64,000 nt of DNA from a virus (IMGVR_UViG_2721755756_000002); one strand, 5' to 3'; shown: positions 19,400 through 35,660, counted from the stretch's first letter. Notes: generated by a model not told the origin, from the sequence alone. Translations and numbers: made by a program.

Positions 19400-20227
19400 A
19401 TGGCATTTAAGAAAAGAACAAGCCTGTCCGGATTAACAGGCAGTAATTGGATGGATTGGGCGCTACGGCGTACAGGAGTGGCAATGCCAAACTGCTTTAC
19501 CTATGCTACAGCTCGTATCAGCGAGATTTTAGGGCGAGAGGAGTATTTGGATAGCCCACGGGTAAACGGCGCACAGGAGCTGTGGGATAACTACTCAGAC
19601 GGCTTTAAACGCTCAAAATATGCTGTAGAGGGTGCACTCATGATCTGGCAGTCAGGACAGTGGGGGCATGTAGCAGTTTGTGAGGAACTTATTGACACCA
19701 ACACGATCGCATGGAGCCAGTCCAACTACGGCGGGGCAATGTTTGAATATGTGAAAGGAAATCCGAACGGGTACAAAGGCATGAAATTTTTAGGATATCT
19801 GGTACATGATAAACTGCCGAAAGCAGAGGCAGCAAAACCATCTACTAGTAAGCCGACTACTACTGGCATTAAGGCGGGCAATAAGGTCAAAATCAAGTCC
19901 AGCGCTAAAAAGTACGCTACTGGTCAGACAATCCCCGCATGGGCTAAAGGCAAGACATATACCGTACAGCAGGTATCTGGCAGTAAGGCGCTGATTAAAG
20001 AGCTTGTGTCATGGGTTAAAACATCCGATTTACAGATGACCGGCGCAGCTGCGGTGATTGCAGTCGGCAAAAAGGTCAAAGTTAAAAAGACGGCCAAGAC
20101 CTATGCAACAGGGCAGAGCATTCCGGCGTTTGTAAAAGGTACGACTTACACAGTCATGCAGATCAGCGGGGATAAGGTACTACTGAAAGAAATCATGAGC
20201 TGGGTACGTAAATCTGATTTGGAATAA
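19400..20227 (+). CDS. Endolysin, CHAP domain plus two SH3-like cell-wall-binding repeats
   Basis: MPNCFTYA (Cys) and WGHVAV (His); two KVKIK..YATGQ.IP..VKG..YTV.Q.SG repeats. Confidence 0.9.
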   Translation: MAFKKRTSLSGLTGSNWMDWALRRTGVAMPNCFTYATARISEILGREEYLDSPRVNGAQELWDNYSDGFKRSKYAVEGALMIWQSGQWGHVAVCEELIDTNTIAWSQSNYGGAMFEYVKGNPNGYKGMKFLGYLVHDKLPKAEAAKPSTSKPTTTGIKAGNKVKIKSSAKKYATGQTIPAWAKGKTYTVQQVSGSKALIKELVSWVKTSDLQMTGAAAVIAVGKKVKVKKTAKTYATGQSIPAFVKGTTYTVMQISGDKVLLKEIMSWVRKSDLE

Positions 20228-21177: not shown

Positions 21178-21206
21178 CTACTCTCCACACAAGAGAGTGG
21201 CTTTTT

Positions 21207-22992: not shown

Positions 22993-23037
22993 GGCTTTTT
23001 TATTTACATTTCAACATATAAGTAGTATAGTATATAA

Positions 23038-23121
23038 GCAATCACTTAATGATTGTATCGCCCTTTTTCCCCCATTATTTGTTCATGAGGACGATAAGCC
23101 GGCTTTATGTCGGCTTTTTTT
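23038..23121 (+). ncRNA. sRNA cassette 1 (candidate)
   Basis: TTTACA-17-TATAGT (23003-23031); C/U-rich loop; terminator AAGCCGGC-TTTAT-GTCGGCTT-T5; no ORF. Confidence 0.6.
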
Positions 23122-23195
23122 GTTAAACATGGAACTTCCAATATTTTACTACGATAATGATTTGCAATTTTTGAAGAAATGCTATATAATTTCGT

Positions 23196-23260
23196 AGTCA
23201 CTCTTTCATACAGTTTATGCAGCGACAATGGGACAAAAGCCAGCTTATAGCCGGCTTTTT
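23196..23260 (+). ncRNA. sRNA cassette 2 (candidate)
   Basis: TTGCAA-17-TATAAT (23162-23190); terminator AAAAGCCAGC-TTATA-GCCGGCTTTTT. Confidence 0.6.
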
Positions 23261-23334
23261 ATTATCGGATTAAAATTAAGGAAAATTAAATAATTTAGAA
23301 TTTACATACGGAGGAAATATGATAGAATGATATT

Positions 23335-23416
23335 GGCATAATTATATGCTTCTGCCTAGGTATCTTTATGCTATCCATCTAAAAAGATGGGGAACCGGTT
23401 CTATACCGGTTTTTTT
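23335..23416 (+). ncRNA. sRNA cassette 3 (candidate)
   Basis: TTTACA-16-TAGAAT with TG extension (23301-23328); hairpins GCATA/TATGC and CCATCT/AGATGG; terminator AACCGGT/ACCGGTT-T-run. Confidence 0.55.
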
Positions 23417-23489
23417 GTAAAGTTTTATAACATTTAATAAAATAGTATCAATGTATTTACAAATAGTTGATTGAGGTATATAATGATTA

Positions 23490-23564
23490 CGTTGCCGCCC
23501 ATTAAAAAGAAAGGGATACCTAGGCAGTATTTTGCGGCACTTGACCACCTTAATGGTGGTTTTT
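23490..23564 (+). ncRNA. sRNA cassette 4 (candidate)
   Basis: TTTACA-17-TATAAT (23456-23484); TGCCGC/GCGGCA closing stem; terminator ACCACC/GGTGGT-TTTT. Confidence 0.6.
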
Positions 23565-23577
23565 CATTTATTTTATA

Positions 23578-23603
23578 AAAAATCCCGTATTTGATGATTT
23601 ATT
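23578..23603 (+). promoter_or_regulatory. 26-bp box upstream of shared sRNA, copy 1
   Basis: AAAAATCCCGTATTTGATGATTTATT, identical to the reverse complement of 34467-34492. Confidence 0.7.
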
Positions 23604-23638
23604 TACCTTTTTAAATTTTTATGTGAGATAATGTGCAC

Positions 23639-23728
23639 AGCAGCACAGATATCTTACTCTCCCCCCAAGTCCGTATCATATCTTCTTCCTAGCTGCCAGC
23701 TCCTGTCTATGTGCAGGAGTCTTTTTTT
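23639..23728 (+). ncRNA. sRNA cassette 5, shared between the two prophages (copy 1)
   Basis: GCAGCA.AGATATCTTACT...CCCAA.TCCGTATCATATCTTCTTCCTAGCTG plus terminator CTCCTG/CAGGAG-T-run; homologue at 34346-34431. Confidence 0.7.
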
Positions 23729-23990
23729 ATGGTCTTAAGCTCTCAATAAACCATCTATATTTATAAGGTGGCATATATTCATAGTATATAGTTCGAGTTG
23801 CTCCATTTATTTGTATCACAAACATTTGACCACCGCCGCCACAGTTTTTGCTATGGCATTGTGGTTTATGACGTATGATCTTGTCTATTTCATAGCGTTC
23901 GTCGTTCCAGATAACCGCAAGGGGCGTAATGTCTCCCATTTTATTAACGAGCATAACAACATCTATATATTTTTTATACAGGCGCTGCAT
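23727..23990 (-). CDS. Small protein resembling the family usually found beside Y-family (DinB/UmuC) polymerases
   Basis: KKYIDV..GDITPLAVIWNDERYEIDKI..GGGG..RWFIE pattern; RBS GAGGTGA. Confidence 0.55.
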   Translation of the reverse strand: MQRLYKKYIDVVMLVNKMGDITPLAVIWNDERYEIDKIIRHKPQCHSKNCGGGGQMFVIQINGATRTIYYEYMPPYKYRWFIESLRP

Positions 23991-24091
23991 TTGATCACCT
24001 CATTGTTTATGATGAACAGCTTTTACCATATTATACCAATGAAAAAATTCTACATCGTATATTACAATTAGTGTAACAGATAAGACTTGAG

Positions 24092-24403
24092 GTGAGAATT
24101 TTGAAGTTGAGAAAAAATATTGCATGGAATATATTATGCAACGCAAGACTTAAAATGCTTGTTAATGGTGATATAAGTGTGGAAAAGGCTGCATCTATCA
24201 TTTTTGATACAGAAAAACTCTTCACGGATGTAATCCAGAATATGGAGACCATGAGCATAGCTGAATATAATAACAAACGTATCATATTCGATGATGGCCG
24301 CCGTCTGTACTATAATGATTTCAATGCAGCTTTTTTAAACGGTGATATCCTGTATTTGTGTGGCAGCAGGAAAACCTATGTGTTTTACGTATATACGAAG
24401 TAG
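24092..24403 (+). CDS. Hypothetical protein
   Basis: 103 aa ORF with RBS GAGG, GTG start. Confidence 0.5.
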   Translation: MRILKLRKNIAWNILCNARLKMLVNGDISVEKAASIIFDTEKLFTDVIQNMETMSIAEYNNKRIIFDDGRRLYYNDFNAAFLNGDILYLCGSRKTYVFYVYTK

Positions 24404-24671
24404 TACCCCCTGTTTATTACCTCATGTTATCCGATAACATTATAACATATAATCGTTAATAGCAATGCTTTTTCGTACTAAGTGGATGCTTTTTCCTCAT
24501 TTATCGGATAGTTTCAAATTTTTTATAAAACAATCAAGTTATAGGGTAAATATACCAATTTTTACCAATTTGTGATATTATCTTTATTTTTTAGCAAAAT
24601 ATGGTAATATTTAATTGCTGATATATATTAAGCATCTCATGTTATCCAAAACAGAAAAAGGAGATGCAATC

Positions 24672-24836
24672 ATGAATATCGTTAAATTAAATAGAAAGAT
24701 CAAGGGGATAAGTGTATCAGATTTAGCAAAGGAGTTAGGGATGCCATTATTGCTGTACATATTTCATGAAAGGCGTATGGACTTCACAGTTGAACAATTC
24801 CGAATGCTTTGTGGTTTATTAAATATACTGTATTGA
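24672..24836 (+). CDS. Small XRE-type HTH protein
   Basis: RKIKGISVSDLAKELGM helix-turn-helix pattern; RBS AAAGGAG. Confidence 0.7.
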   Translation: MNIVKLNRKIKGISVSDLAKELGMPLLLYIFHERRMDFTVEQFRMLCGLLNILY

Positions 24837-24854
24837 TGTATCTAATATGAAGTG

Positions 24855-24883
24855 AAAAATGGTGAGCAATCACCATTTTTTTT
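24855..24883 (+). terminator. Rho-independent terminator
   Basis: AAAAATGGTGA-GCAA-TCACCATTTTT followed by T-run. Confidence 0.75.
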
Positions 24884-25127
24884 GTTATAATATCTGTAAT
24901 AAATTGTTAACATATATAATGTATATAATGCTTATAATAATCAAGCAAAAACATATAATCTAACAAATAAGCTAACAAAAATACCGATAATCCCATAAAT
25001 AAAGGATAAATTTTAACAAAATTATAACATTTCCTGTTTATCTTTTCTTTATAATGGAAACGAAGGAGGATAGCATTCACAGGCATAAAACCTCACGCAC
25101 AAACGTATTTTGTATAGAGGTGAGAGT

Positions 25128-25328
25128 ATGCTTTCCATAGATAAGAATCAGGTCATGATTGAACATTACCGGGAACTGACCCTGGTGAGCGAAACGAGAA
25201 TACAGGTGACGATGAAATCCTACCGTATCACGATAGACGGGGAGCAGCTGCATGTGCTGGCACTGGGAAAGGATGAGATCCTGCTGGAGGGCAGTGTGCA
25301 GAATCTGGCGTTCGCATATGAAAAATAG
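25128..25328 (+). CDS. yqfC: YabP/YqfC-family sporulation protein
   Basis: IEHYRELTLVSE..EILLEG motif; upstream of yqfD-phoH as in Bacillus; RBS GAGGTGA. Confidence 0.75.
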   Translation: MLSIDKNQVMIEHYRELTLVSETRIQVTMKSYRITIDGEQLHVLALGKDEILLEGSVQNLAFAYEK

Positions 25329-26244
25329 AAAGGGTTTCGGTCTTGATCAATGGAAAGTGCAGGCCTCTTGCGATGAGTTTTTATGGATTATAAAGAAAAA
25401 TCAGCTGGAACTATATGATATTACTCTACATCGAAACTATATTCAGTTCTACGCATCCATTCTGCAGCGCCCGAAAATCTACCGCTGCTTTGAAGCATGT
25501 GATCTGATCACAACCACCGGTATGCTGGGATATGCACTGCGCAGCCTGAAAAAGCCCTATCGCGTTGCGGCAATTCTGCTTTCTATCCTGCTGTGGTACG
25601 GTCTTTCGTCCATGGTATTTGAAATACAAATCAAGGGAGAAAAGGATGAAAGCCGGAAGCTGATTGCGGATACCCTGAAAAAACTGGAGGTTGTACCACC
25701 CTTTAAAAGCAGGGATGTCTCACAGCTGAAGGCACAGCTGAAAAAGAATCTGGAAAATGATATCGCCTGGCTGGAAATCGAGAAACAGGGCAGCCGGTAT
25801 CTGATTACCTATACGCCAAAGGAATTTGCCTCCTTATCCCAGCTGGGACATGAAGAGCTGATTGCACAGGAGGACGGTATGATTGAGCGCTTTGATATAC
25901 AGCATGGAAACAAGCTGCACAAGGTCAATGAATTTGTGCATAAGGGTGATGTGCTGGTAAGCAATGTGCTGGAGGATTCCAAGGGCGGCAAGCAGGAGGT
26001 ATATGTCAAGGGACGTGTCTTTGCCTATGTCTGGAAGGATATCACCGTGACGATGGACAAGACAAGGGAACCGAAGGCCTTTCAGTATTTTCAGCTGCTG
26101 TTTGATGCCAGACGCAAGGTGAGCGAGGACTTTCACAAGGACGATCGCATTTACAAGGAAAATATTTTGCAATTCTCTACAGATATGGGTAAAATAAAGA
26201 TGGTGATTCATTACACACTGATCAAGGACATCACCACACCATAA
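25318..26244 (+). CDS. yqfD: Sporulation protein YqfD
   Basis: IAWLEIEKQGSRY, ELIAQEDGMI and VHKGDVLVS motifs; yqfC-yqfD-phoH synteny. Confidence 0.85.
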   Translation: MKNRKGFGLDQWKVQASCDEFLWIIKKNQLELYDITLHRNYIQFYASILQRPKIYRCFEACDLITTTGMLGYALRSLKKPYRVAAILLSILLWYGLSSMVFEIQIKGEKDESRKLIADTLKKLEVVPPFKSRDVSQLKAQLKKNLENDIAWLEIEKQGSRYLITYTPKEFASLSQLGHEELIAQEDGMIERFDIQHGNKLHKVNEFVHKGDVLVSNVLEDSKGGKQEVYVKGRVFAYVWKDITVTMDKTREPKAFQYFQLLFDARRKVSEDFHKDDRIYKENILQFSTDMGKIKMVIHYTLIKDITTP

Positions 26245-26259
26245 CGATAAGGAGCGCCT

Positions 26260-27246
26260 ATGAGTGAACAATTTCGTATTGCATTAGAAGAATACCCGAT
26301 GGAATGGATCGTAAAATTATGCGGAGCACAGGATAAGCATCTGGAGCTGCTGCGAAACGCCTTTTCCTGTGATATCATCATGCGGGACAATGAGCTGCGC
26401 ATTCTCAGTGAGGATGCAGTTACCTTTCACAGCATTGAATCTGTGGTAAAGGCCCTGTTTGATATGATGGAGGCACATATTGATGTGAGTGGACGCGATA
26501 TTGAATATGCCTGCCGTCTGGCGAAGCTGAATCGGCTGCAGGAGCTTTCCACGACATATCAGAAGGCGATCGGTAAAACGGTCAACGGGAAGCTGATTTA
26601 TCCCAAAACGATCGGACAGCGGCATCTGTTTAAATGCATGTGCAACAGTGAAATCGTCTTTGCGACCGGAGTGGCCGGTACCGGAAAAACCTACCTCGCT
26701 GTTGTATATGCGACCGATCTGCTGAAAAAGGGAGAAATCCGCAAGATTATTTTGACCAGACCCGCCGTGGAGGCCGGAGAGAATCTGGGCTTTCTGCCGG
26801 GCGATCTAAAGGAAAAGGTGGATCCGTATCTGCGACCGCTCTATGATGCCCTGTATGATACGCTGGGACAGGAACAGGTGGAGAAGCTGCTGGAAAAGGA
26901 AGTCATCGAAATCGCGCCGCTTGCTTATATGCGCGGACGGACGCTGGACAATGCCTTCATTATACTGGATGAGGCGCAGAATACAACTCGTGCACAGATG
27001 AAGATGTTTCTGACGAGGATGGGATTTCATTCCCGCATCGTCATTACCGGGGATGTAACACAGATTGATCTGATTAAAAAACGTGATTCCGGCCTGCTGA
27101 ATGCCAAGCATCTGCTGTCCGGGATAGAGGGAATCTCCTTTGTGGAGCTAACCAGCCTCGATGTAGTTCGTAATCCGTTGGTTCAGAAGATCATTGAACG
27201 ATATGAGCAGGAGGAAGAACGATATGGCAAGGATTTTATTGATTGA
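26260..27246 (+). CDS. phoH: PhoH family ATPase
   Basis: GVAGTGKT P-loop, RPAVEAGENLGFLPG, AYMRGRTL, DEAQN. Confidence 0.97.
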   Translation: MSEQFRIALEEYPMEWIVKLCGAQDKHLELLRNAFSCDIIMRDNELRILSEDAVTFHSIESVVKALFDMMEAHIDVSGRDIEYACRLAKLNRLQELSTTYQKAIGKTVNGKLIYPKTIGQRHLFKCMCNSEIVFATGVAGTGKTYLAVVYATDLLKKGEIRKIILTRPAVEAGENLGFLPGDLKEKVDPYLRPLYDALYDTLGQEQVEKLLEKEVIEIAPLAYMRGRTLDNAFIILDEAQNTTRAQMKMFLTRMGFHSRIVITGDVTQIDLIKKRDSGLLNAKHLLSGIEGISFVELTSLDVVRNPLVQKIIERYEQEEERYGKDFID

Positions 27247-27904
27247 AGACGAAGATAACATCCGCAAGATCATTGCATATGATTTGAAAAAAGCGGATTT
27301 TGATATCGTGGAATGCGGTGATGGTAGAACGGCTGTCGATCTGGCGATGAAAGAGGATTTTGATGTGCTGATCATCGACTGGATGCTGCCTCATGTCAGC
27401 GGAATCGATATCGTGAAAAAACTGCGCAGTGAGCACATTGACGCTATCTTTATCATGCTGACGGCAAGGGATGATGAAACGGATATCCTGTATGCCTTTG
27501 AGCAGGGCGTGGATGATTATATCACAAAGCCGTTTTCTCCAAGAGAGCTGCTGGCCAGGGTGAATGCCCATCTGAAGCGGCAGAACCGCAAGCAGGAAAA
27601 GCGGCTCAGTGTAGGTGATCTGTCCATGGATATGAAGCGGCGTGAGGCATATATCGGAGAGCGGATGATGACGCTGACAAAGAAGGAATTTGACCTGCTG
27701 GAGTATTTTATCCAGAACAAGGATATCGTATTGTCCCGTGACAGCATCCTGAACGATATCTGGGGTTTTGATTATGACGGAGATACACGGATTGTGGATG
27801 TGCATGTATTCAAGCTGAGAAACAAGCTGAATGCGTCGCATGTACATATCAGGTCATCCCGCGGAGTCGGTTATCTGCTGGAGGAAGTGCATGAAACGCA
27901 ATAA
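27224..27904 (+). CDS. phoP: OmpR-family response regulator, PhoP-like
   Basis: Receiver (DWMLP, TKPFSPREL) and winged helix with GDTRIVDVH; start ATG 27224 after AGGAGGAAG. Confidence 0.75.
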   Translation: MARILLIEDEDNIRKIIAYDLKKADFDIVECGDGRTAVDLAMKEDFDVLIIDWMLPHVSGIDIVKKLRSEHIDAIFIMLTARDDETDILYAFEQGVDDYITKPFSPRELLARVNAHLKRQNRKQEKRLSVGDLSMDMKRREAYIGERMMTLTKKEFDLLEYFIQNKDIVLSRDSILNDIWGFDYDGDTRIVDVHVFKLRNKLNASHVHIRSSRGVGYLLEEVHETQ

Positions 27905-29111
27905 ATACGGGTATCTGGGATTGATTCTGGCCTGCATTGCGGTTGTGCAGTACAATTATCATTTGAATGAATATGTACTGCTGCTGCTCGTGGTAGTTTC
28001 GATTGCTTTGCTCTGGGAGTTTCTGGATCAGAAAAATCTGAACGTGCATCGCCGGGAGAATATCGAGCTGCAGGAGGAAATCAAATCGACTGCCAAGGAT
28101 GCGCATTTGAAGAATAAACAGCTGCTGACGGTCGTGACCAGTATACCGTTTCCGATGCTGCTGGTCGATCAGTTCGGCAATATCGTCATGCATAACAATG
28201 TCAGTGAGCTGTGTGAGGACGGTCCTGTCGGTGAGCATATGACCTATATGAGCAACGCCTATCTGCATCCTGTGCGGGAGTTTATCAAGGATGCCTTTAT
28301 TCTGGAAAAGCCGATGGATAAAATCATCGATATCAACGGTGTGGAATACCAGTCTATCAGTGTACCGGTGACAGCAAAGAAGAAGTACAGCGGCTGTCTG
28401 GTTCTGTTTCAGGATATTTCAAAAACACTGGAGGGGGAGAAGATGCAGAAGCGTTTTATCGCAGATGCGTCGCATGAATTGAAGACACCGATCGCCGTTA
28501 TCAAGGGCATGGTGGAAATTCTAAACCGCAAGGATTTTGATGATGAGGAAACACGCCGCGAATTTATGGATCAGATTGAACAGGAAATCAACCGTCTGGA
28601 TATTCTGGTGAAGGATTTGCTTCAGCTGTCCCGCCTCAGCCTGTCCACGGTTTTGCTGGAACGAGAGAAAACCGATCTTTGCCTTGTTATTGACAAGGCG
28701 GTGAAGTCACTGGAGAAAAAGGCGGAGAAAAAGGGACTGCGCATCGTGAAGGAATATCAGAATCATGATCTGGTATTCTGTGATCCTTTGAAAATGAGTC
28801 AGGTTGTGTTGAATCTGCTGTCGAATGCCATCAAGTACAGCGATCGAGGCACGATTACCCTAAAAACGAGGGAAGAAGGCTCCTGGTATGTTTTGCAGGT
28901 AAGGGATGAGGGCCATGGTATTGCCGCAGAGGATTTGGAGAAAATTTTTGACCGCTTTTATCGGGTGGATGATGATCGCTCCCGAAGCAGCGGCGGCTCA
29001 GGACTGGGACTTTCCATTGTGAAATCCATTGTCGAGGCTCACCATGGGGAAATAAAGGTAGAGAGTGAATTTGATAAGGGAACGACATTTACGGTCAGAT
29101 TGAAGAACTGA
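27891..29111 (+). CDS. phoR: Sensor histidine kinase, PhoR-like
   Basis: Two TMs, DASHELKTP H-box, NLLSNAIKYS, GGSGLGLSIV. Confidence 0.75.
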   Translation: MKRNKYGYLGLILACIAVVQYNYHLNEYVLLLLVVVSIALLWEFLDQKNLNVHRRENIELQEEIKSTAKDAHLKNKQLLTVVTSIPFPMLLVDQFGNIVMHNNVSELCEDGPVGEHMTYMSNAYLHPVREFIKDAFILEKPMDKIIDINGVEYQSISVPVTAKKKYSGCLVLFQDISKTLEGEKMQKRFIADASHELKTPIAVIKGMVEILNRKDFDDEETRREFMDQIEQEINRLDILVKDLLQLSRLSLSTVLLEREKTDLCLVIDKAVKSLEKKAEKKGLRIVKEYQNHDLVFCDPLKMSQVVLNLLSNAIKYSDRGTITLKTREEGSWYVLQVRDEGHGIAAEDLEKIFDRFYRVDDDRSRSSGGSGLGLSIVKSIVEAHHGEIKVESEFDKGTTFTVRLKN

Positions 29112-29183
29112 TTTTCCAATGCTGATCGTGAATGTCATTTCTTTACTGAAAAAATTTATATAAATTGTATGAATTGTATGAAA

Positions 29184-30935
29184 GCTGAAGTGAAAAGTTA
29201 AATTCCACTTTCAAAAGGCGAATAAAAAATGTGGAACTTTCTTCTACAAAAGTCTATACAGAGCATAAATATAGCGTTAGAAAGGGTTTCAAATAGGTAG
29301 AAGTAAGTAAAAATGTGAAGAAAGTGGTCATTGTGCGAATGATAGATAAAATAAATAAGCGCACTGAAAATAGGCTCCATTATGCCTATGTATAACTAAA
29401 TTCCACTTCCAGTTTATAGTTACACTATAAATAACTGTTCTTCCCGCTGCTCTTATCATTCTTTATATCATCTGTTTGTTACTTATGAGTCAATACGCTT
29501 GGACGAAGTATCACTTCGTCCTTTTCTATTTTCTGTAGACCAAATTCATAAAGTTTCTGCGCTAATTCCGGACACATGAACTCACATAGCTCAAATGGGG
29601 ATTTTCCATTCAAATGTTCCTTGGCACTGGAATTGATATGTGAGATGGCTACATTCAAGGAAGTCTGATCGGTCAGGCCGATACTGCGTAAGTCTACTTC
29701 GTTAGGTAATATATAACGTAATTCACGATGCATATTTTCCAGGCTTCCTTTCTGCCCGGACTGCATAGGGTCGCAATAGAAGACTCGTGTCCTTCTGGTA
29801 CCATCGTCTCTTTTTTCCATATGCTCAGCATCAGTAAATTCACCTCCGCGATCAGTGAGTGTTATATGAGCTTCCTGTTCAAACAGGCTTTTTCCAAGGA
29901 TGGAATCAAGAACAGCTAGTCCGTCAACCATATCTGCAGCAGTCTTCGTGTCGTGATATACAGCAAACAGGAGCCCATATTTGATGAATTTGAAAGTCTG
30001 GATAAACGGTCCATTGGAAATGTCATTATAGACTGTATCCATTTGTAAAATGTGTGTGATTTCCTCAGACTCAACATAGGATTGGTAATCTGTGTAAAGC
30101 CGTCCAACAAGGAATTTACGGTCTTGTCGTTTTTTATAGATCGTCTTCTTCTTAGCGGTCATTTTTCTTTTGACTTTTATACGAAGGTCAATATTAGCAA
30201 TGCCAACACATTCGAATACACCTTGTTCAATATAGTTGTAGAGTGTCTTCTCACTGATTCCAAGTTCGGGATGTGCAGCTATGATCTGATAAGGTGAATG
30301 ACCTTTTAATAGAAGAGGCTTGATGGTATTGCCTAGCTCTACAGCTTCTGATGAGGTCAGATTGATTCCGGTTCGAGACTCAACGAGTTCGCTACGGTAT
30401 TCCTCATAGGCGATCGTAGGTTTATAGAGGTATTTATCAAAGCGGCAGCTTTTCAGTTTCTCACAGCCATTACAAGCTCCCGGAGTACGATCTCTGCGTT
30501 TACAGCGGAACTTAGAATAATCAGGGCAGTTGACAGTACAATTCTTTCTCTTAAACTTACAGTGAGCATAGTTCTCGCATTCTAGAGAAAGTGTAGATTT
30601 ATGAGAGAGATAACGGTGAGCACGGATTTCCTTACCTATCGTAGATTTATCTTTGCCTAGATTATCAGCAATAGCTTTTTTAGAAGAACCATTAACGATG
30701 CCGATCGCGATGACATTGCGATCGTCCTGAGTCAGATGTTTGTTTTTGTTCGTTGCCATATTCATCACCCTTTGTAATGTGTATGATAATAACCAGCGGT
30801 TACCTTCATCATAGATATAAAAAAGGATATATGAAAGACTAAATGCAATTGTAAGTGTAAATTCAACTAGATTGTTGTGTAAGAGTCTTTTCTACTTGGT
30901 TACTTTGAAAGTGGAATTTAACTTTTCACTTCAGC
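29184..30935 (-). mobile_element. IS30-family insertion sequence
   Basis: Perfect ~32-bp terminal IRs GCTGAAGTGAAAAGTTAAATTCCACTTTCAAA; 13-bp flanking direct repeat GAATTGTATGAAA (29171-29183, 30936-30948). Confidence 0.9.
29479..30768 (-). CDS. IS30 transposase
   Basis: N-terminal HLTQDDR HTH, Cys-rich insert, LQMDTV, TDRGGEF, QKGSLENMH DDE motifs. Confidence 0.92.
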   Translation of the reverse strand: MMNMATNKNKHLTQDDRNVIAIGIVNGSSKKAIADNLGKDKSTIGKEIRAHRYLSHKSTLSLECENYAHCKFKRKNCTVNCPDYSKFRCKRRDRTPGACNGCEKLKSCRFDKYLYKPTIAYEEYRSELVESRTGINLTSSEAVELGNTIKPLLLKGHSPYQIIAAHPELGISEKTLYNYIEQGVFECVGIANIDLRIKVKRKMTAKKKTIYKKRQDRKFLVGRLYTDYQSYVESEEITHILQMDTVYNDISNGPFIQTFKFIKYGLLFAVYHDTKTAADMVDGLAVLDSILGKSLFEQEAHITLTDRGGEFTDAEHMEKRDDGTRRTRVFYCDPMQSGQKGSLENMHRELRYILPNEVDLRSIGLTDQTSLNVAISHINSSAKEHLNGKSPFELCEFMCPELAQKLYEFGLQKIEKDEVILRPSVLTHK

Positions 30936-30961
30936 GAATTGTATGAAATGTAAATTTGCTC

Positions 30962-30990
30962 TTGCGTTTGAAAAAGAATAATGCTATAAT
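30962..30990 (+). promoter_or_regulatory. SigA promoter of tRNA-Glu
   Basis: TTGCGT-17-TATAAT. Confidence 0.7.
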
Positions 30991-31008
30991 ATTCAAGCAA
31001 ACAAAGAT

Positions 31009-31083
31009 GTCGCGTTCGGCAAGCGGTCAAGCCACAGCCCTCTCAAGGCTGTATCACGGGTTCGAATCCCGTACGCGATACCA
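31009..31083 (+). tRNA. tRNA-Glu (anticodon CTC), probable integration site of prophage 2
   Basis: Cloverleaf with anticodon arm CAGCC-CTCTCAA-GGCTG, T-arm ACGGG-TTCGAAT-CCCGT and encoded CCA. Confidence 0.95.
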
Positions 31084-31091
31084 TGCTAATT

Positions 31092-31115
31092 AAGCCTTGA
31101 ATAAAGGCTTTTTTT
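31092..31115 (+). terminator. Terminator after tRNA-Glu
   Basis: AAGCCTT-GAATA-AAGGCTT followed by TTTTT. Confidence 0.75.
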
Positions 31116-31144
31116 AATGTTCATTTTATAGTTCACACATGTTG

Positions 31145-31165
31145 TCTCTAGATTTTCTCTAGATT
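31145..31165. repeat. Direct repeat TCTCTAGATT x2, putative integrase arm-type sites
   Basis: Copies at 31145 and 31156 (11-bp period), between the tRNA and the Xis-like gene. Confidence 0.5.
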
Positions 31166-31183
31166 ATAAAATAAAAGCACTGC

Positions 31184-31429
31184 TTAGACAGTGCCGTTTA
31201 TCATTGTATGGTATAGTTCTGAAAGCTCCTTATTCCCATAATATTCAAGAAATTTGTCAAGTCTAACCTTTGTTTTGACCTTTTTATTGTCAATAGGAAG
31301 ATATGTCATAAGCGCTTCTATTCTTAAGCGCCTTGCTTCGACTGTGGAACAACCTGTCAAGGTCTTTATCTCTGACAGCCCTAAATAAGCCTTTTCTTTA
31401 AAAATTTTTCTGATAGCTTCTACATCCAT
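31184..31429 (-). CDS. Excisionase-like small DNA-binding protein
   Basis: 81 aa basic protein, YLGLSEIKTLTGCS wHTH-like; last phage gene before the att region. Confidence 0.5.
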   Translation of the reverse strand: MDVEAIRKIFKEKAYLGLSEIKTLTGCSTVEARRLRIEALMTYLPIDNKKVKTKVRLDKFLEYYGNKELSELYHTMINGTV

Positions 31430-31689
31430 TAAATACTTTCTTCACCTTCCTTTTTGATATTACGTACTTTATACCATTTACAGAATGGTCGTGGAATGTC
31501 AGGGAACGATACTAATCTATCTTTTAACCTGCATTCCTTTAATTCACCTCCGCAATCTAAAATCTTATATCTATAGTGAGCACAAAATTTACATTTTGGA
31601 TGTTTACCTCGATACTCTGTTAACTTGTCTTTTCGCTTTGATGAGACTTTAGATGTTCTGCAGGGACGGCTTGATGTTTTATACTCCAT
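31429..31689 (-). CDS. Small Cys-rich phage protein
   Basis: CKFCAH..C..C..C pattern. Confidence 0.55.
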   Translation of the reverse strand: MEYKTSSRPCRTSKVSSKRKDKLTEYRGKHPKCKFCAHYRYKILDCGGELKECRLKDRLVSFPDIPRPFCKWYKVRNIKKEGEESI

Positions 31690-31692
31690 TCT

Positions 31693-32538
31693 TTATGCTG
31701 CCTCAATTTGTATACCATACATCTCTTCACATAAAGCTTTAACATCATTTTCGTACAACTTACATGCTATCTCATATAATTCAGGGATTTTATTCATGAC
31801 TTTGTCAATGTAATCAATCTTGTTTCTTACTTTTGGCTTGTTTTCACGATTGTATTTATCAACTCGTAATTTTAGATTGATGTGATATTTCATTTCGAAC
31901 TGTTTGTATAGTTCTGCATACCTTTCTCTGTAATCAGCTCCTTTGAATCTAACAACACGATTAAGGACTTGACGTTTTTCTGCAGTATCAATGTTATCTA
32001 CAAGGCCGATGATTACATCTTCTTTATGTTCGACTTCTTTTTCAAGTTGTTTATTCTGTAATAGCAACTTTTCGTTCTCTTCTATTTGATCAGCATAGAG
32101 CCTTAGTGCCTGAGAAAATGTCTGAGGAAGGTTGAAACTATCCTTAACCTTAAAATAAGTTTCTTCCAGATTATCGAACTGTTCCCATGCCTTATCGGTA
32201 TCCAGAATTTTGCAGTGACGGTCTGCACCCTTTTCTGTCCAGAGCATCAACTCTTTAGCATGTTTTAACTGCGTATCATTTAGATACTCTGTTTTAAACT
32301 TTCTTAATTCATTACCGATAAGTTTATAATAATGTTTTCCTTCGATGAATCTTTCTTTGTTTCTGCTAAATGATTGGCGGATTCTTTCTTCGCCACATTC
32401 ATATACCTGTGCTAGTTGCTGTGTAGTTAAAACTCTTTGATTTGAATATTCGATAACAGCTAATTCTTTTCTTTCTGTTTTCCCAAATCCTAATGATACG
32501 GGGTTATCATAATTATTTCCATTCATTTGTAATTCCAT
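31693..32538 (-). CDS. ORF6N-domain antirepressor-like protein
   Basis: QRVLTTQQLAQVYE..FIEGKHYYKL..LMLWTEKGADRHCKILDTDKAW is the ORF6N signature. Confidence 0.85.
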   Translation of the reverse strand: MELQMNGNNYDNPVSLGFGKTERKELAVIEYSNQRVLTTQQLAQVYECGEERIRQSFSRNKERFIEGKHYYKLIGNELRKFKTEYLNDTQLKHAKELMLWTEKGADRHCKILDTDKAWEQFDNLEETYFKVKDSFNLPQTFSQALRLYADQIEENEKLLLQNKQLEKEVEHKEDVIIGLVDNIDTAEKRQVLNRVVRFKGADYRERYAELYKQFEMKYHINLKLRVDKYNRENKPKVRNKIDYIDKVMNKIPELYEIACKLYENDVKALCEEMYGIQIEAA

Positions 32539-32555
32539 ATATTCATCCTTCCCAT

Positions 32556-32606
32556 AAAATAAAAGGCTTGTCTAGTGGTTTTGCCTTCGTCCACATCTGA
32601 CAAGCC
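32556..32606 (-). promoter_or_regulatory. Terminator/attenuator-like hairpin in antirepressor leader
   Basis: GGCTTGTC..GTGG/CCAC..GACAAGCC followed by TTTTATTTT just before the RBS. Confidence 0.55.
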
Positions 32607-32755
32607 AGTGATAGCCTTACCACCTACTACTATCTCTACCCATTGCGTTACTGATTGAATGTACTTGAGCAAATAATCAACATAAACGTGCCATTTTCTA
32701 GGCTTCTTTTTTTTTATTGAATATTCAATCAGATTAGGATACCCACTTTTTGTTT

Positions 32756-32852
32756 TGTAGACAGGCAGGATCGAACTGCCGACAGTTTACAGGTATTACA
32801 GCTGATAAACCTGTAAGTGTCTCACCCTATGCGCAAGTTTGTGATTACTACA
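32756..32852 (-). ncRNA. tRNA-like element B (extended arms)
   Basis: Acceptor-like TGTAG/CTACA; canonical T-arm GGCAG-TTCGATC-CTGCC; long arm TTACAGGT/ACCTGTAA; no encoded CCA. Confidence 0.55.
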
Positions 32853-32856
32853 TATT

Positions 32857-32922
32857 TGGTGACTCCAAGTGGAATCTAACCACTATATCTCACAACCGAA
32901 TGGTCAGTTCAAGAAGGAGTCA
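32857..32922 (-). ncRNA. tRNA-like element A (66-nt mini-tRNA)
   Basis: TGACTCC/GGAGTCA acceptor followed by CCA; T-arm AGTGG-TTAGATT-CCACT; only ~30 nt in place of D and anticodon arms. Confidence 0.6.
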
Positions 32923-33370
32923 TATGTGCAGCACATCTACTTCTGTATCCCAGATAGCGGGCAGTTTTGACGTGCTGCTGATGGCTTTACCACCTGCCAA
33001 AGAGGGGAAGTGTTCAGCATACACTCCGGTGGAACGGTCTTCAGCCTGCCGCCACGGCCGCAGATAAGTCCCGTAGGATTCCTTATCGCTGTTACCAAAC
33101 AAACATACACAGCTTCCATGACTGTGTACTTGGGCGTTGTGGATCAATGGAATGTATTTATCTCCGACAACATGACCTCCGGAAGATTTCCAGACACCAA
33201 GCTAAGCCATATACAAGGCTGAGTGGGACACTTCGACGAGAGGTGTTCAGTCTAAAGTCATAGGGGCGAACCCTCTATATTTGTAACATCTGTCTTAACC
33301 AGTCACGCCACGGGGAGGCTGTTACATGTGACCATATGTACATTACATGGGATGTACAGTCATGAAAAGA
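32923..33370 (-). ncRNA. ROOL-like large structured ncRNA (ends approximate)
   Basis: ORF-poor, stem-rich block directly downstream of a phage tRNA. Motifs GGCTTAGCTTGGTGTCT..TTCCGGA..ATGTT, TCTTTGGC and GTCAAAACTGC match my recollection of ROOL conserved segments; not verified by search. Confidence 0.65.
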
Positions 33371-33418
33371 GAGGGGAATGGTATTCATTGATTGCCATGT
33401 CAATCGGAAATATCTTAT

Positions 33419-33494
33419 TGGCTGGACGAACTGGGATCGAACCAGTGGAATGCCAGATTCAAAGTCTGGTGCCTTACCGCTTGGCTACCGTCCA
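33419..33494 (-). tRNA. Phage tRNA-Gln (anticodon TTG)
   Basis: TGGACGG/TCGTCCA acceptor, CAGA-CTTTGAA-TCTG anticodon arm, CTGG-TTCGATC-CCAG T-arm, encoded CCA. Confidence 0.93.
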
Positions 33495-33555
33495 ATTTGT
33501 TGTGGAGTTTTGTGGTACCTCCTCCACAGCTGTTTAAATACGATATACGCCTCCA

Positions 33556-33635
33556 ATTAGCCTGTTATAAGGGGCTTAGTGTGCTGTATGGATAAATACA
33601 ACACATCAAGGTAAATCTTTCTCAAACAGGCTAAT
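33556..33635 (-). ncRNA. Structured element upstream of tRNA-Gln (candidate)
   Basis: 11-bp closing stem ATTAGCCTGTT/AACAGGCTAAT enclosing TGTGTTGTAT/ATACAGCACA; the G-U pair favours the minus strand. Confidence 0.4.
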
Positions 33636-33645
33636 AAAAGGTGAA

Positions 33646-33831
33646 TCACATTAAGTCTTTCAAAGTGCTAAGAGGACAGTTACCTCGTCCGAAATCCTTG
33701 TCCACATAAGCCATTCTGTCATGACGGCATCCCGTGAAAGGTATTTGCCCTTTCTTAACAGGCATACAATCCTTAGAATCGTATGGACGTCTAATGCTTT
33801 TGTCTGTGTGAATCATGTTTGTTTTCTCCAT
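33646..33831 (-). CDS. Small hypothetical protein (61 aa)
   Basis: RBS AAGGAGG before ATG 33831; downstream of the promoter at 33932-33960. Confidence 0.5.
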   Translation of the reverse strand: MEKTNMIHTDKSIRRPYDSKDCMPVKKGQIPFTGCRHDRMAYVDKDFGRGNCPLSTLKDLM

Positions 33832-33931
33832 AATATATCCTCCTTCGTCTACATTTTCCGTAAAAATGGAACGTGATTTTTTACCCCTCAACATTTGTGA
33901 GTTGAGGGGAGGTGTTCCTTTATTTGTCTAC

Positions 33932-33960
33932 ATTTTACACAATTCTGGGGTGTGTGTCAA
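33932..33960 (-). promoter_or_regulatory. SigA-type promoter probably driving the tRNA/ROOL cluster
   Basis: TTGACA-17-TAAAAT on the minus strand. Confidence 0.7.
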
Positions 33961-33985
33961 CACAAAACTAAAACTTTTTTTCTTA

Positions 33986-34297
33986 TCACCAAATAACTCC
34001 ATAGATTTCCTTGATGTTTGCTTCTTTTTCATTTAATTCATGAATATCTATCAGACCATTGTCATATTGATTCCACGCCATTCGTAATTCATAATTCATA
34101 CATTCATCGTCTATCAAATCTTTTTCACTTGCATAATTGTACTTCTTACATATTTGCATATAGTGCTGTCTACGTGCTTTCCATATTTTTGCTTTATACA
34201 TTATGTCGGTCTGCCATAATCTTTTATTGTATGGGTAACGCATCTTTTGCATGAAGACTTCAAAAGATAGAAACTTTTGCTCTAGCATGTATATCAC
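33986..34297 (-). CDS. Hypothetical protein
   Basis: 103 aa ORF, RBS GAGGTGA. Confidence 0.55.
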   Translation of the reverse strand: MIYMLEQKFLSFEVFMQKMRYPYNKRLWQTDIMYKAKIWKARRQHYMQICKKYNYASEKDLIDDECMNYELRMAWNQYDNGLIDIHELNEKEANIKEIYGVIW

Positions 34298-34345
34298 CTC
34301 ATAGATATTCTATACTGTATTGTTACAAGAATACTGTCACAATAT

Positions 34346-34431
34346 AAAAAAATCCCACCAAAGGTGGGAAGTGACAGCTAGGAAGAAGATATGATACGGA
34401 TTTGGGTGTTAAGTAAGATATCTTTGCTGCC
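34346..34431 (-). ncRNA. Shared prophage sRNA, copy 2
   Basis: Homologous to 23639-23728; different terminator (TCCCACC/GGTGGGA followed by T7). Confidence 0.7.
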
Positions 34432-34466
34432 ATAAACATTATTGCACAAAATTCAATGAGGTGGGG

Positions 34467-34492
34467 AATAAATCATCAAATACGGGATTTTT
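34467..34492 (-). promoter_or_regulatory. 26-bp box upstream of shared sRNA, copy 2
   Basis: Identical to 23578-23603, with the same 18-nt spacing to TGTGnnATAAT. Confidence 0.7.
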
Positions 34493-34505: not shown

Positions 34506-34676
34506 AAAAAAAGGAACGACCGTCCTTTTTCTAAAATCCATTATGATAATTTGTTCTTTTGATCCACTAGTTCCAAAGAGCTAGTCTGCTTCTACCAACG
34601 GCGATATGTAGACTTGTATATTTTAGATCTACAGAACCTCAATAGAGGTTACTGACACTGGATACGCTTATCCTAT
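34506..34676 (-). ncRNA. ~170-nt multi-hairpin ncRNA (candidate)
   Basis: TTGCAT-17-TATAAT promoter (34711-34683); hairpins GGATA/TATCC, AACCTC/GAGGTT, TGTAGA/TCTACA, CTAG/CTAG; terminator AAAAAGGA/TCCTTTTT. Confidence 0.6.
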
Positions 34677-34716
34677 GTACACATTATATATCAACGGAGA
34701 AAAATATGCAATACAC

Positions 34717-34760: not shown

Positions 34761-35660
34761 TTAAGCAACTTCTGTGAGATCTTTTGGGTGTGCCCACATA
34801 TCTGCCTCTTTCAGGTATACATCACCAGAAGCAGAATCATACTTCGATACGGTGAAGTAGTTCTTTGTAAAATAGCATTTATCCTTCAGATAAAGAATCT
34901 GATTCTTACCTTTTTTAGTCAAATGTTTAGGCCATGCCCAAGCATCAATCTCCTTCAAAAATACACAACCTGAAGGCTGGTCGTAATCTGTGACAGTCAT
35001 CGTATTCTTTGTATACTTACAGTGGCTACCAACATGCAGAATCTGGTCGACCTTTTCTTTGCTTGGTTTAGACGGAGTAGGGGAAGGCTTAGATGCTGTA
35101 GATACTTTTACGTCTGCCAGCTTCTTCCACTTCATTCCATTACCATTGAGAATAGTGGTATTGTCTACGAAGCACGCCTTGTCTGCGCTGATAGATTTTG
35201 GCAAATGAAATACACCAAATTTATTCTGGTCGTATTTGTGATTAAATTTTCCCTTCGCAATCTCAAAGTGGTTGTGATTTCCAGTTGCGAAGCCAGCTGT
35301 ACCTTCTTGACCAATCTGAGTGCCCTGAGTATAACGTACACCGGGGTAGATGCCAGACAGGGAATTGTCATGTAGCACCATGATTGTGGCATAGTCGATC
35401 GTGCCATCAGCAAAGCGTACCTTTTGAGTAGATTCCCAGAATGCAGCATTACCTTCCGTATTACGATCACCTGTTGCTACACATTTTACATCAAAAGGGG
35501 CATAGAACAGGTCACGGCCTGTGTCCTTACCTGCGAGATCAAGTGCATTTACACCCATATGAGAGAACTGTCCATTGTTTCCCTGTGTAACGTTCATATA
35601 TTCCATGGGAAACAGCACATCTTGGTAGCATCCACGTTTACTAGTTTGTCCTTTTTTCAT
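34761..35660 (-). CDS. Endolysin, M23-like peptidase with C-terminal repeats
   Basis: SHMGVNALD (HxxxxxD) and GNHNHFE (HxH) motifs; lysis module position. Confidence 0.8.
   Translation of the reverse strand: MKKGQTSKRGCYQDVLFPMEYMNVTQGNNGQFSHMGVNALDLAGKDTGRDLFYAPFDVKCVATGDRNTEGNAAFWESTQKVRFADGTIDYATIMVLHDNSLSGIYPGVRYTQGTQIGQEGTAGFATGNHNHFEIAKGKFNHKYDQNKFGVFHLPKSISADKACFVDNTTILNGNGMKWKKLADVKVSTASKPSPTPSKPSKEKVDQILHVGSHCKYTKNTMTVTDYDQPSGCVFLKEIDAWAWPKHLTKKGKNQILYLKDKCYFTKNYFTVSKYDSASGDVYLKEADMWAHPKDLTEVA

Follow-up and report, generated by a model that had tools for sequence, protein, structure and literature searches.

Small RNAs (sRNAs) encoded by prophages are well documented in enterobacteria and staphylococci. 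In Bacillus prophages, type I toxin-antitoxin pairs are made of convergent RNAs that overlap at their 3' ends (txpA/RatA and bsrG/SR4). The lambdoid prophages of EHEC carry AgvB, AsxR, and related short sRNAs, which act as "anti-sRNAs" and are encoded at moron sites (Tree et al. 2014, PMC4104026). The SprD RNA of Staphylococcus aureus comes from a converting phage, where its gene sits between scn and chp; it base-pairs with a core-genome mRNA at the Shine-Dalgarno sequence and start codon (Chabelskaya et al. 2010, PMC2880579). The moron of temperate phages, a concept of Juhala and Hendrix, is treated by Cumby et al. (2012, PMC3594210). For gut bacteria of the Erysipelotrichaceae or Clostridium innocuum type, our literature search found no description of a prophage sRNA, nor did it find a paper matching the RNA family reported here.

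We analyzed DNA of the virus IMGVR_UViG_2721755756_000002. The window, which is the whole stretch of 64,000 nt, holds two copies of one module, copy A on the plus strand and copy B on the minus strand. The best reading of this module is a new family of prophage-borne sRNA "morons" in which the promoter lacks a -35 and has a sequence-specific element upstream of it. Like AgvB and AsxR, the module RNAs are short and terminator-ended, occupy a conserved accessory position in several prophages per genome, and are related but not identical, with a conserved and a variable part (PMC4104026). However, they belong to a different phylum and have no sequence relation to the EHEC RNAs, as the module RNA has no Rfam match. 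The EHEC RNAs are 51-60 nt long and bind Hfq, whereas a 90-nt bulged hairpin is predicted here, and no equivalent of the invariant upstream box was found described for the EHEC anti-sRNAs (PMC4104026). The module RNA resembles SprD as a Gram-positive, phage-borne sRNA in the lysogenic-conversion region (PMC2880579), and the RBS pairing of SprD is the mechanism that we propose for it. In contrast, the two RNAs match in neither sequence nor structure, and the target and phenotype of SprD are experimentally proven, whereas the module RNA has a candidate target only. SprD is not known as a multi-copy mosaic family. Morons are independent transcription units with their own promoter and terminator (PMC3594210); they are inserted amid the conserved modules of a phage and occur across unrelated phages. 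Likewise, our module is an autonomous unit in unrelated phage backbones and the only one common to the two window prophages. Classic morons are protein-coding, whereas the cargo here is an RNA, with a fixed upstream control element travelling along.

The two copies comprise the following features, in which the 5' end of the copy A sRNA was inferred from the position of the -10.

23578-23603, plus strand: copy A upstream box, at about -61 to -36 from the predicted start, core at 23580-23599.
23604-23621, plus strand: copy A variable spacer of 18 nt, without a usable -35 (family alignment, promoter scan).
23622-23632, plus strand: copy A TRTG-extended -10 (TGTGAGATAAT), kept in all intact copies with 11 invariant columns.
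23639-23728, plus strand: copy A predicted sRNA of about 90 nt (fold z = -3.6; consensus fold; model R1, 110.6 bits; terminator scan).
23640-23644 with 23692-23696, plus strand: copy A outer stem (predicted fold).
23647-23652 with 23678-23683, plus strand: copy A inner stem (predicted fold).
23655-23657 with 23673-23675, plus strand: copy A UAC/GUA stem (predicted fold).
23658-23672, plus strand: copy A apical loop (predicted fold).
23684-23691, plus strand: copy A internal loop (predicted fold).
23699-23728, plus strand: copy A terminator (terminator scan).
34467-34492, minus strand: copy B upstream box (identity to copy A; box-core scan).
34438-34448, minus strand: copy B TRTG-extended -10 (TGTGCAATAAT), for which the scan finds no -35.
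34346-34433, minus strand: copy B predicted sRNA of about 88 nt (fold z = -4.65; model R1, 90.6 bits; terminator scan).
34369-34346, minus strand: copy B terminator, with its stem at 34369-34353 and U-run at 34352-34346 (terminator scan).

The earlier note had claimed that the same sRNA and an identical upstream box occur in two unrelated prophages, and every detail of this observation was borne out by the sequence. The 26-nt box is identical at 26/26 positions between 23578-23603 (plus) and 34492-34467 (minus). It is followed by 18 divergent nt (23604-23621 in copy A and 34466-34449 in copy B; 6/18 matching by hand count) and then by TGTGAGATAATGT in copy A and TGTGCAATAATGT in copy B. The body of about 57 nt is the same in both copies save at the positions already marked in that note, and the terminators are unlike, each being found by the scan on the strand proposed. 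Both prophage arms encode phage tail and endolysin proteins. Outside the module, no DNA (E 1e-3) or protein (E 1e-4) is common to the two arms: blastn of 1-25010 against 31085-64000 gave a sole match, 23560-23698 with 34509-34372 (79.6% over 142 nt), and no ORF of at least 50 aa was shared at E 1e-4. With up to three mismatches allowed, the window holds two matches to the 20-nt box core, whereas 0.03 would be expected by chance. Copies identical to copy B are present in two further loci (L026 and L037).

The proposed RNA structure was recovered by RNAfold for both copies. The outer stem is GCAGC/GCTGC in copy A, with GCTGT replacing GCTGC in copy B; both copies share the inner stem AGATAT/ATATCT plus UAC/GUA, a 15-nt C-rich apical loop, and a TCTTCCTA internal loop. 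Fold z-scores were -3.6 (copy A) and -4.7 (copy B), with 0/200 shuffles folding as well. The hairpin was stable in three variants (z = -3.6 to -4.7), RNAalifold returned the same structure from 31 sequences, and the predicted start coincides with the foot of the outer stem. As in a stand-alone sRNA gene, the module has a predicted promoter of its own and a rho-independent terminator, and neither strand has a conserved ORF. A micro-peptide from the opposite strand would have AGGAAGAAGAT ahead of an ATG, and by eye the invariant 3' half, reverse-complemented, does resemble an RBS with a start codon. However, that frame has 8, 14, or 22 codons in the three main types, loop indels shift it, and the RBS spacing is lost in some variants, with only 2 nt between SD and ATG where the internal loop is UCCUAUU. 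The promoter and terminator also face the other way, which makes such a peptide an extremely improbable product.

Searches of IMG/VR proviruses and human-gut metagenome contigs with three independent pattern types yielded 46 module instances (31 distinct), all scoring 79-125 bits with model R1. They fall into 15 upstream and 8 downstream flank classes. This agrees with the claim that the module is gene-sized, is under purifying selection, and moves from phage to phage. Eighteen of the 20 box-core columns are invariant (30 distinct intact copies), and both hairpin stems are invariant across the family. The terminator, the spacer, and the 5' and internal loops are variable, with pairwise identities down to 0.11-0.37; the spacer goes as low as 0.11, yet its length is constant within 1 nt. 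A recombination scar confined to two uniformly diverged copies is ruled out, because invariant segments alternate with segments only 11-37% identical. The spacer, loop, internal-loop, and terminator types recombine independently, and two loci (L035 and L019) join the spacer of one type to the body of another. Variants of the internal loop include UCCUAUU, UACAAGC, and UCCGAGC; this proposed seed is not conserved in all variants, which counts against RBS pairing.

No intact copy of the RNA lacks the box; this is true of the metagenome set as well, for which the search pattern did not include it, and an independent box-plus-(-10) pattern scan recovered the same pairing of box and -10. Four of the five full provirus records carry the box once (two of these are at least 99% complete), and the fifth (99% complete) lacks it and carries a promoterless copy. 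Across 457 kb of module loci, the only further boxes were one decayed copy and chance matches. Several genomes hold multiple copies in different prophages (the window; L002; L003/L004/L032; contigs OBWZ01000127 and OASS01000024). The family is narrow, a point against the sRNA "moron" reading: the 50,697 phage records of INPHARED gave no match, and one genome per GTDB species gave only two chance matches. With Rfam 15, whose families include SprD, RsaE-type RNAs, riboswitches, and ROOL, at the gathering threshold, the whole window returned two tRNAs only and no family for the sRNA. At E up to 5, nothing in 22900-24400 overlapped the sRNA body (23639-23698). A 19-bit match to the lncRNA DLEU2_4 at 23700-23752, overlapping the copy A terminator, was rejected as spurious.

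The terminator is the only part of the RNA with compensatory changes, two covarying pairs with double changes of UA/CG 14:11 and GC/AU 17:8 (25 distinct rows). G-U pairs at both of its ends are possible on the proposed sense strand only and would be A-C on the strand of the micro-peptide. In the main hairpin, none of the 16 pairs changed on both sides and 10 never vary; the functional hairpin is without covariation because both stems never vary, an invariance partly imposed by the search patterns used. In trans-acting sRNAs, the usual pattern is the reverse of invariant paired parts with variable seed-like loops. Here, the paired parts and UCCGUAUCAU are invariant and the "seed-like" loops vary, as would suit a protein-binding or decoy RNA (a sponge, anti-defence decoy, or anti-sRNA) whose stems and 3' half of the loop formed the recognition surface for a host or phage protein. 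The carriage of several copies per genome in different prophages fits this reading, and the EHEC prophage anti-sRNAs are likewise present in multiple copies that combine a conserved and a variable part (PMC4104026). However, such an RNA has no known partner, the window has no CRISPR array whose repeat could be compared with it as for an RNA anti-CRISPR (Racr or solitary repeat unit), no GGA-type or repeat-like motif was seen by eye, and the stem invariance that favors it is partly a search artefact. We consider a protein-binding or decoy RNA distinctly unlikely.

The -10 conserved in the family is TGTG-N-(G/A)ATAAT. Neither copy has a -35, and the promoter scan found no -35/-10 pair. In Firmicutes, TRTG-extended -10 promoters can function without a -35, and the weakness ascribed to this promoter in the earlier note was an assumption. 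The AAATC-N11-GATTT dyad proposed there is not conserved, as the commoner box type has GATTA on the right, so the dyad arm is of 4 bp only. The box is nevertheless a conserved site at a fixed distance upstream of a -35-less promoter, as the operator of an activator-dependent promoter would be. Its binding by a host factor is plausible, and we consider its most likely ligand to be either the alpha subunit of RNA polymerase or a host transcription factor.

The box and inverted repeats could instead act as DNA, as a protein-binding site or a recombination "linker" for module exchange with no RNA function. Homology begins sharply at the box and stops after the outer stem, direct copies flank a 2.7-kb HTH-gene module in one locus (L002), an AAATCC(C)GTAT motif is seen by eye in both box and body, and invariant stems are expected of DNA sites. 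Against this, the extended -10 at a fixed distance, the start at the hairpin foot, and the covarying terminator directly after describe a transcription unit. In addition, the distance from the module to the prophage ends ranges from 150 nt to 3.3 kb, with different recombinase types alongside, and the 7-mer recurrence has, by our own estimate, a chance expectation of about 10%. A DNA element without an RNA function is, in our view, quite improbable.

The genomic context involves the following neighbors.

19400-20227, plus strand: prophage 1 endolysin (CHAP), the lysis-module marker upstream of copy A (Pfam CHAP, 2e-8; PHROG endolysin).
21199-22992, minus strand: ISL3 insertion between the lysis module and the sRNA region (Pfam DDE_Tnp_ISL3).
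23727-23990, minus strand: 87-aa gene of cluster c2, convergent and tail-to-tail with copy A (codon-position variation).
33986-34297, minus strand: 103-aa gene of cluster c76, co-oriented, after the copy B terminator (gene call).
34761-35660, minus strand: prophage 2 endolysin, upstream of copy B (PHROG endolysin, 1e-25; weak Peptidase_M23 match).

The post-lysis position claimed for the module is constant across loci, behind at least five endolysin types (CHAP, Amidase_3, NlpC/P60-like, SH3_5-bearing, and M23-like) and near the attachment end of the prophage, with integrase or host DNA just downstream. The ISL3 insertion is strain-specific, as contigs of other strains join 21198 straight to 22993. 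Since the same module lies behind the lysis genes of many gut prophages, we take it to be a real, mobile, and probably regulatory RNA gene; its independent transcription is probable.

The minus frame of c2 is coding because its variable sites fall at codon positions 1/2/3 as 18/11/60 (60 of 87 third positions vary, beside module segments that stay invariant in the same loci); its product has no Pfam or PHROG match. The sRNA could be a cis-acting element of such a neighbor, either the convergent antisense partner of c2 or a terminator-containing leader of the gene after copy B. The c2 gene, which follows the sRNA in 17/46 loci, has its end within the terminator T-run of the sRNA, with no terminator of its own apparent before the sRNA antisense; the c76 gene starts on the same strand 48 nt past copy B. 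However, c2 is absent from 29/46 loci, c76, without a family match, is restricted to the copy-B type of locus, and the eight downstream contexts include integrases and host genes, with no co-oriented gene common to all. The absence of any riboswitch or leader family match, and of anything common to the window copies beyond the module, likewise argues against a cis element, to which we give little probability. The prophage location and, in some loci, a small antisense RNA convergent with a small gene recall txpA/RatA and bsrG/SR4, but the partner gene is missing from most loci and from copy B, and c2 encodes an 87-aa protein that is not a small hydrophobic peptide. A type I toxin-antitoxin system was rejected on these grounds, the RNA module alone being common to A and B, and a cis-regulatory leader or riboswitch was rejected for want of a constant co-oriented downstream gene class.

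Four RNA-library runs, available as unstranded contigs only, cover 23609-24779 and also structural phage genes, with no information on start, end, or strand; copy B was not covered in any of them. Pairing prediction pointed to one candidate target in the window.

27205-27229, plus strand: RBS and start codon (27224) of a host OmpR-type response-regulator gene, a candidate target (pairing prediction).

Among 81 start regions in the window, this site gave the strongest pairing (-26.8 kcal/mol) with the 26-nt 3' half of the sRNA, a segment chosen after the fact whose pairing there needs both stems opened. The shuffle-best had a mean of -20.0 kcal/mol (sd 2.3), and 3/300 shuffles matched the candidate. 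The full-length body paired with window start regions no better than shuffled sRNAs, and no complementary stretch of at least 12 nt was found within the window.

In the mechanism that we propose, temperate phages of a gut spore-forming Bacillota host would carry the unit in an accessory slot that has the lysis genes on one side and the attachment site on the other. It would begin with a sequence-specific element of 20-26 bp (about -61 to -36), followed by a promoter that has a TRTG-extended -10 but no -35, then by a long, bulged hairpin (about 57 nt) and a rho-independent terminator. We infer that the RNA is made from the prophage, as we do its strand and 5' end. Its pyrimidine-rich single strands, the C-rich apical loop and the UCUUCCUA internal loop, possibly joined by the adjoining CAUAUC, would pair with purine-rich RBSs and start codons of host or rival-phage mRNAs and block translation. 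A factor on the box would make the gene respond to a host signal, and variation in the loops may serve to diversify the targets while the scaffold stays fixed. Control of translation through RBS pairing, as modeled here, is a tentative proposal. For the reading as a whole, an autonomous non-coding "moron" of temperate phages with this box, promoter, RNA, and pairing mechanism, we lean toward acceptance. The module may also be a plug-in regulatory cassette, an idea that we regard as unlikely. The box would then be a host-factor operator wiring the phage RNA into a host signalling regulon, and recombination would swap the apical and internal loops of the hairpin scaffold to retarget the RNA, so that several prophages per cell would provide different "specificities" under one control signal.

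The family offers a compact, testable case, with one invariant promoter element, one invariant scaffold, few natural loop variants, and frequent multi-copy carriage. Should the box be a site for a host factor, it would reveal how lysogenic-conversion RNAs are coupled by phages to signals of the host, and should the loops set target choice, the family would amount to a modular sRNA design of natural origin. If both ideas fail, the family would still be a new yet ordinary one of phage sRNAs, worth an Rfam entry.

We compared the sRNA module, which comprises an upstream box, a TRTG-extended -10, a bulged-hairpin sRNA (~90 nt predicted) and a rho-independent terminator, between its two copies, copy A at 23578-23728 (+) in prophage 1 and copy B at 34492-34346 (-) in prophage 2. 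The 26-nt box was identical in both, 23578-23603 (+) matching 34492-34467 (-), as the earlier note had claimed, and its 20-nt core, with up to 3 mismatches allowed, occurred exactly 2 times in the 64 kb versus 0.03 expected. Each copy has 18 unrelated nt between the box and TGTG-NN-ATAATGT. Between the bodies (~57 nt), differences are limited to the apical loop's first half and 3-4 other positions, and the distinct intrinsic terminators that follow were both called on the expected strand by the terminator scan.

Both flanking regions are prophage, with tail proteins, a tape-measure protein and endolysins on each side, and the two prophages face each other over ~6 kb of host DNA carrying yqfD, phoH and a two-component system. 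They proved to be unrelated, as had been proposed; the module was all they had in common (blastn E 1e-3, blastp E 1e-4). According to contigs of other strains, host DNA starts again near 25011, and prophage 2 is bounded by a tRNA-Glu near 31084. These boundaries therefore place copies A and B inside their own prophages, in the arm that lies past the lysis genes. An RNA that is a host gene serving as attachment site was rejected, as both copies lie 1.3-3.3 kb within the boundaries at ~25011 and ~31084. The features of the region are as follows.

Features around the two copies
21199-22992, ISL3 transposase element, a strain-specific insertion (contigs of other strains join its flanks directly)
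23727-23990 (-), 87-aa orphan protein (protein cluster c2) with a CGGGG motif, converging on the sRNA at 17 loci
~29162-30387, HTH_38 (IS30-like) element, a strain-specific insertion (contigs of other strains join its flanks directly)
31009-31083 (+), tRNA-Glu(CTC), the prophage 2 end, with loose contig ends of other strains at 30943 and 31084
33419-33494 (-), tRNA-Gln(TTG), within the prophage accessory arm

A 27-nt tandem repeat (22917-22979) stands at one end of the ISL3 element. The stretch next to the tRNA-Gln, 32923-33418, had no Rfam match at gathering threshold. The tape-measure protein of prophage 2 (2027 aa, 43764-49847 (-)) has a domain resembling endolysins close to its C-terminus (phrog_380, residues 1855-1926).

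The search for the module in further phages used four scan patterns, built on the body's 3' half, the box by itself, the box with the -10, and both inner-stem halves. The scans resulted in 46 instances, 31 of them distinct, from 13 IMG/VR provirus loci and 29 metagenome-assembly loci, several titled human gut; the runs containing the module region were mainly mouse-gut metatranscriptomes. R1, a covariance model built from module instances, gave each instance 79-125 bits and no additional match in the sequence examined. No match was found among the 50,697 deposited phage genomes of INPHARED (blastn, distant mode) or in Rfam, and two scans of one genome per GTDB species returned none and then two chance matches (Nitrospirota and Bacteroidota MAGs). 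The literature search found no published work with the motif strings of the module or on the topic. Diverged members were also sought with looser viral scans, based on the promoter and outer stem only, on the loop and the 3' half, or on a relaxed box. These yielded chance matches alone, at loci L044, L049-L057 and L012, and R1 recognized none of the nine matches tried (L012, L044, L049-L054). The family is real but narrow, being limited to prophages of one host group. This group is sporulating gut Bacillota, for which the YqfD look-up resolves the phylum Bacillota only; the endolysins weakly match Clostridium_AQ innocuum phages, a weak hint of Clostridium innocuum-type bacteria as the hosts.

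Conservation was then measured segment by segment.

Mean pairwise identity per segment among 30 distinct intact copies
Upstream flank: 0.47
Box core: 0.98 (18 of 20 columns invariant)
Spacer: 0.67 (minimum 0.11)
Extended -10: 0.94 (11 invariant columns)
Discriminator: 0.66
Outer stem, 5' arm: 0.99
5' half of loop: 0.68
3' loop plus inner stem: 1.00 (all columns invariant, which the search pattern forces)
Internal loop: 0.70 (minimum 0.22)
Terminator: 0.70
Downstream flank: 0.51

Such an alternation is expected if short functional segments are under purifying selection, and it runs opposite to a uniform divergence between two copies alone, which the earlier note had set against its own reading. 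All metagenome loci with intact copies had the box, though the metagenome pattern did not contain it, and the body was present at every true match of the box-only scans, though absent from that pattern, so that both associations are free of search bias. At the loci bearing c2, third codon positions of that gene vary at 60/87, with box and stems unchanged. The variable segments fall into discrete types (3 spacers, 3 loops, at least 6 internal loops and 5 terminators), and these occur in differing combinations; the module itself is therefore mosaic.

The promoter scan found no -35/-10 pair at copy A or copy B, and the same scan found the promoters of four neighbouring cassettes. The conserved promoter element is TGTG-N-(G/A)ATAAT, a TRTG-extended -10, and we infer that the copy A transcript starts at 23639, ~7 nt downstream of it. 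Relative to this inferred start, the box spans -61 to -36, directly upstream of the would-be -35. The region directly upstream of a -35 is the location of UP elements and class I/II activator sites. The strict sequence of the box, CCCG and GATGA included, would point to a specific binder and not to a UP element defined by A+T richness alone. The AAATC-N11-GATTT dyad once read into it was left without support; only 4 bp of it remain in the commoner type. The box occurs singly in four of five full provirus records (the fifth has none), and because there is one box per provirus, it is not among the multiple operators of a phage repressor. As for a phage-encoded regulator common to the copies, an XRE protein (cluster c1) and a multi-HTH protein (cluster c9) adjoin many module copies in other loci, and both are absent from the window. 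Their absence favours a host factor over a phage regulator at the box.

The left half of the box also forms the 3' arm of a perfect palindrome, TACGGGATTT-N8-AAATCCCGTA, at L009:11198-11225 and in L013, L017, L020, L031 and L034. It belongs to one upstream context, with T-runs on both sides, and could be a bidirectional terminator or a full dimer site.

The predicted transcript would begin with the foot of the outer stem and continue through an asymmetric internal loop, the inner stem, UAC/GUA and a C-rich loop (15-16 nt); the terminator lies 2 nt after the hairpin. The proposed hairpin fold was recovered with z-scores of -3.6 to -4.7 and an identical RNAalifold consensus. The hairpin stems show zero variation across copies and are hence uninformative on covariation, which was seen in the terminator only (two pairs with double changes); the terminator G-U pairs are present on the sense strand alone. 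There is no conserved ORF on either strand of the module, and an RBS-like AGGAAGAAGAT-ATG on the reverse strand opens a frame of 8, 14 or 22 codons across the three main types. In four RNA-library runs (X1, X3, X8 and X12, unstranded contigs), copy B fell outside the coverage; the contig of X12, an isolate transcriptome, spans the neighbouring cassette at 23364-23554, not the copy A RNA.

The post-lysis slot was upheld, with the module standing behind at least 5 non-homologous endolysin types, and its flanks fall into 15 upstream and 8 downstream classes. Depending on the locus, the downstream neighbours are the convergent gene for the 87-aa orphan protein (17 loci), recombinases of the tyrosine or serine type, or host genes; loci of the copy-B type have a co-oriented 103-aa gene. 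In three provirus records the module lies 0.4-1.1 kb from the record end, and the phage and integrated forms of one subfamily part ~255 nt past the sRNA start. The c2 protein has no Pfam or PHROG match, and its variable sites, 18/11/60 by codon position, are clear coding-type variation; its gene has no obvious terminator before the transcript would run antisense through the sRNA gene.

Several non-coding stretches were observed alongside. In L006, L033 and L036, ~150 nt at +110 to +260 from the sRNA start are conserved, with two promoter-like TATAAT boxes, and terminate in ...GGTACCGGCACCA; right after this ending the two forms split, the phage form having an integrase next and the integrated form host genes. 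This block probably serves as the attachment core and may derive from the 3' end of a tRNA. Upstream of copy A, four more ORF-less units occupy 23003-23564 (+), with near-consensus promoters (first hexamers at 23003, 23161, 23301 and 23456) and intrinsic terminators called for two of them (23096-23116 and 23543-23561). Another ORF-less promoter-to-terminator stretch, ~170 nt at 34506-34711 (-), separates the prophage 2 endolysin from copy B.

Two or more module copies per genome or contig were common. Five loci had a copy lacking the promoter, the box's right half and the outer-stem 5' arm (L003:7207 type). At L004:6746 the box, with 2 mismatches, and a homologous promoter stand before another body, which is unstructured (z = 0.07); as a sign of a box regulon this locus was rejected, being a single case, and was read as a decayed copy. 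In L002:9711-12608 and L003:4879-7314, two direct module copies bracket a 2.3-2.8-kb opposite-strand insert encoding a 430-580-aa protein (AP2 domain, many HTH repeats) and a 123-aa XRE protein (phrog_25567). The second copy is promoterless in L003, L004 and L032.

Regarding function, a leader was rejected as no constant gene lies downstream, and a type I toxin-antitoxin pair was rejected as nothing but the module is common to copies A and B. The single-stranded parts of the RNA, the C-run loop and UCUUCCUA, are pyrimidine-rich, like those of Firmicute sRNAs that occlude Shine-Dalgarno sequences. SprD is a precedent on a phage (PMC2880579). Against 74 start regions in the window, the full-length sRNA paired no better than shuffled sequences, and no perfect complementarity of at least 12 nt to it was found there. 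Nor did it pair with the four neighbouring cassettes or the 170-nt RNA upstream of copy B (z -0.3 to +1.6). For the invariant 26-nt 3' half one site stood out, namely the RBS and AUG (27205-27229) of the adjacent gene for an OmpR-type response regulator, with a duplex of 20 bp in three blocks (-26.8 kcal/mol) that 3/300 shuffles equalled, among sites in the window only, the whole genome holding ~50 times more. This start region is a predicted target and a candidate only; the pairing demands the opening of both sRNA stems, and at other loci the RNA does not have this gene close by. A serious rival is that the RNA binds a protein or serves as a sponge, to which the invariant stems and variable loops would be suited; prophage anti-sRNAs are like the module RNA in having conserved plus variable parts (PMC4104026).

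The earlier note had outlined an sRNA gene that is under selection and mobile, occupies the post-lysis slot and has a conserved element upstream, and this outline was borne out; the weak promoter, dyad and host factor of that note are proposed details of mechanism. Judged from sequence, the module appears to be a prophage sRNA moron, of a new family and an already known kind. What is unusual in this family is that the control box travels with the gene, and that a scaffold with variable loops forms a mosaic.
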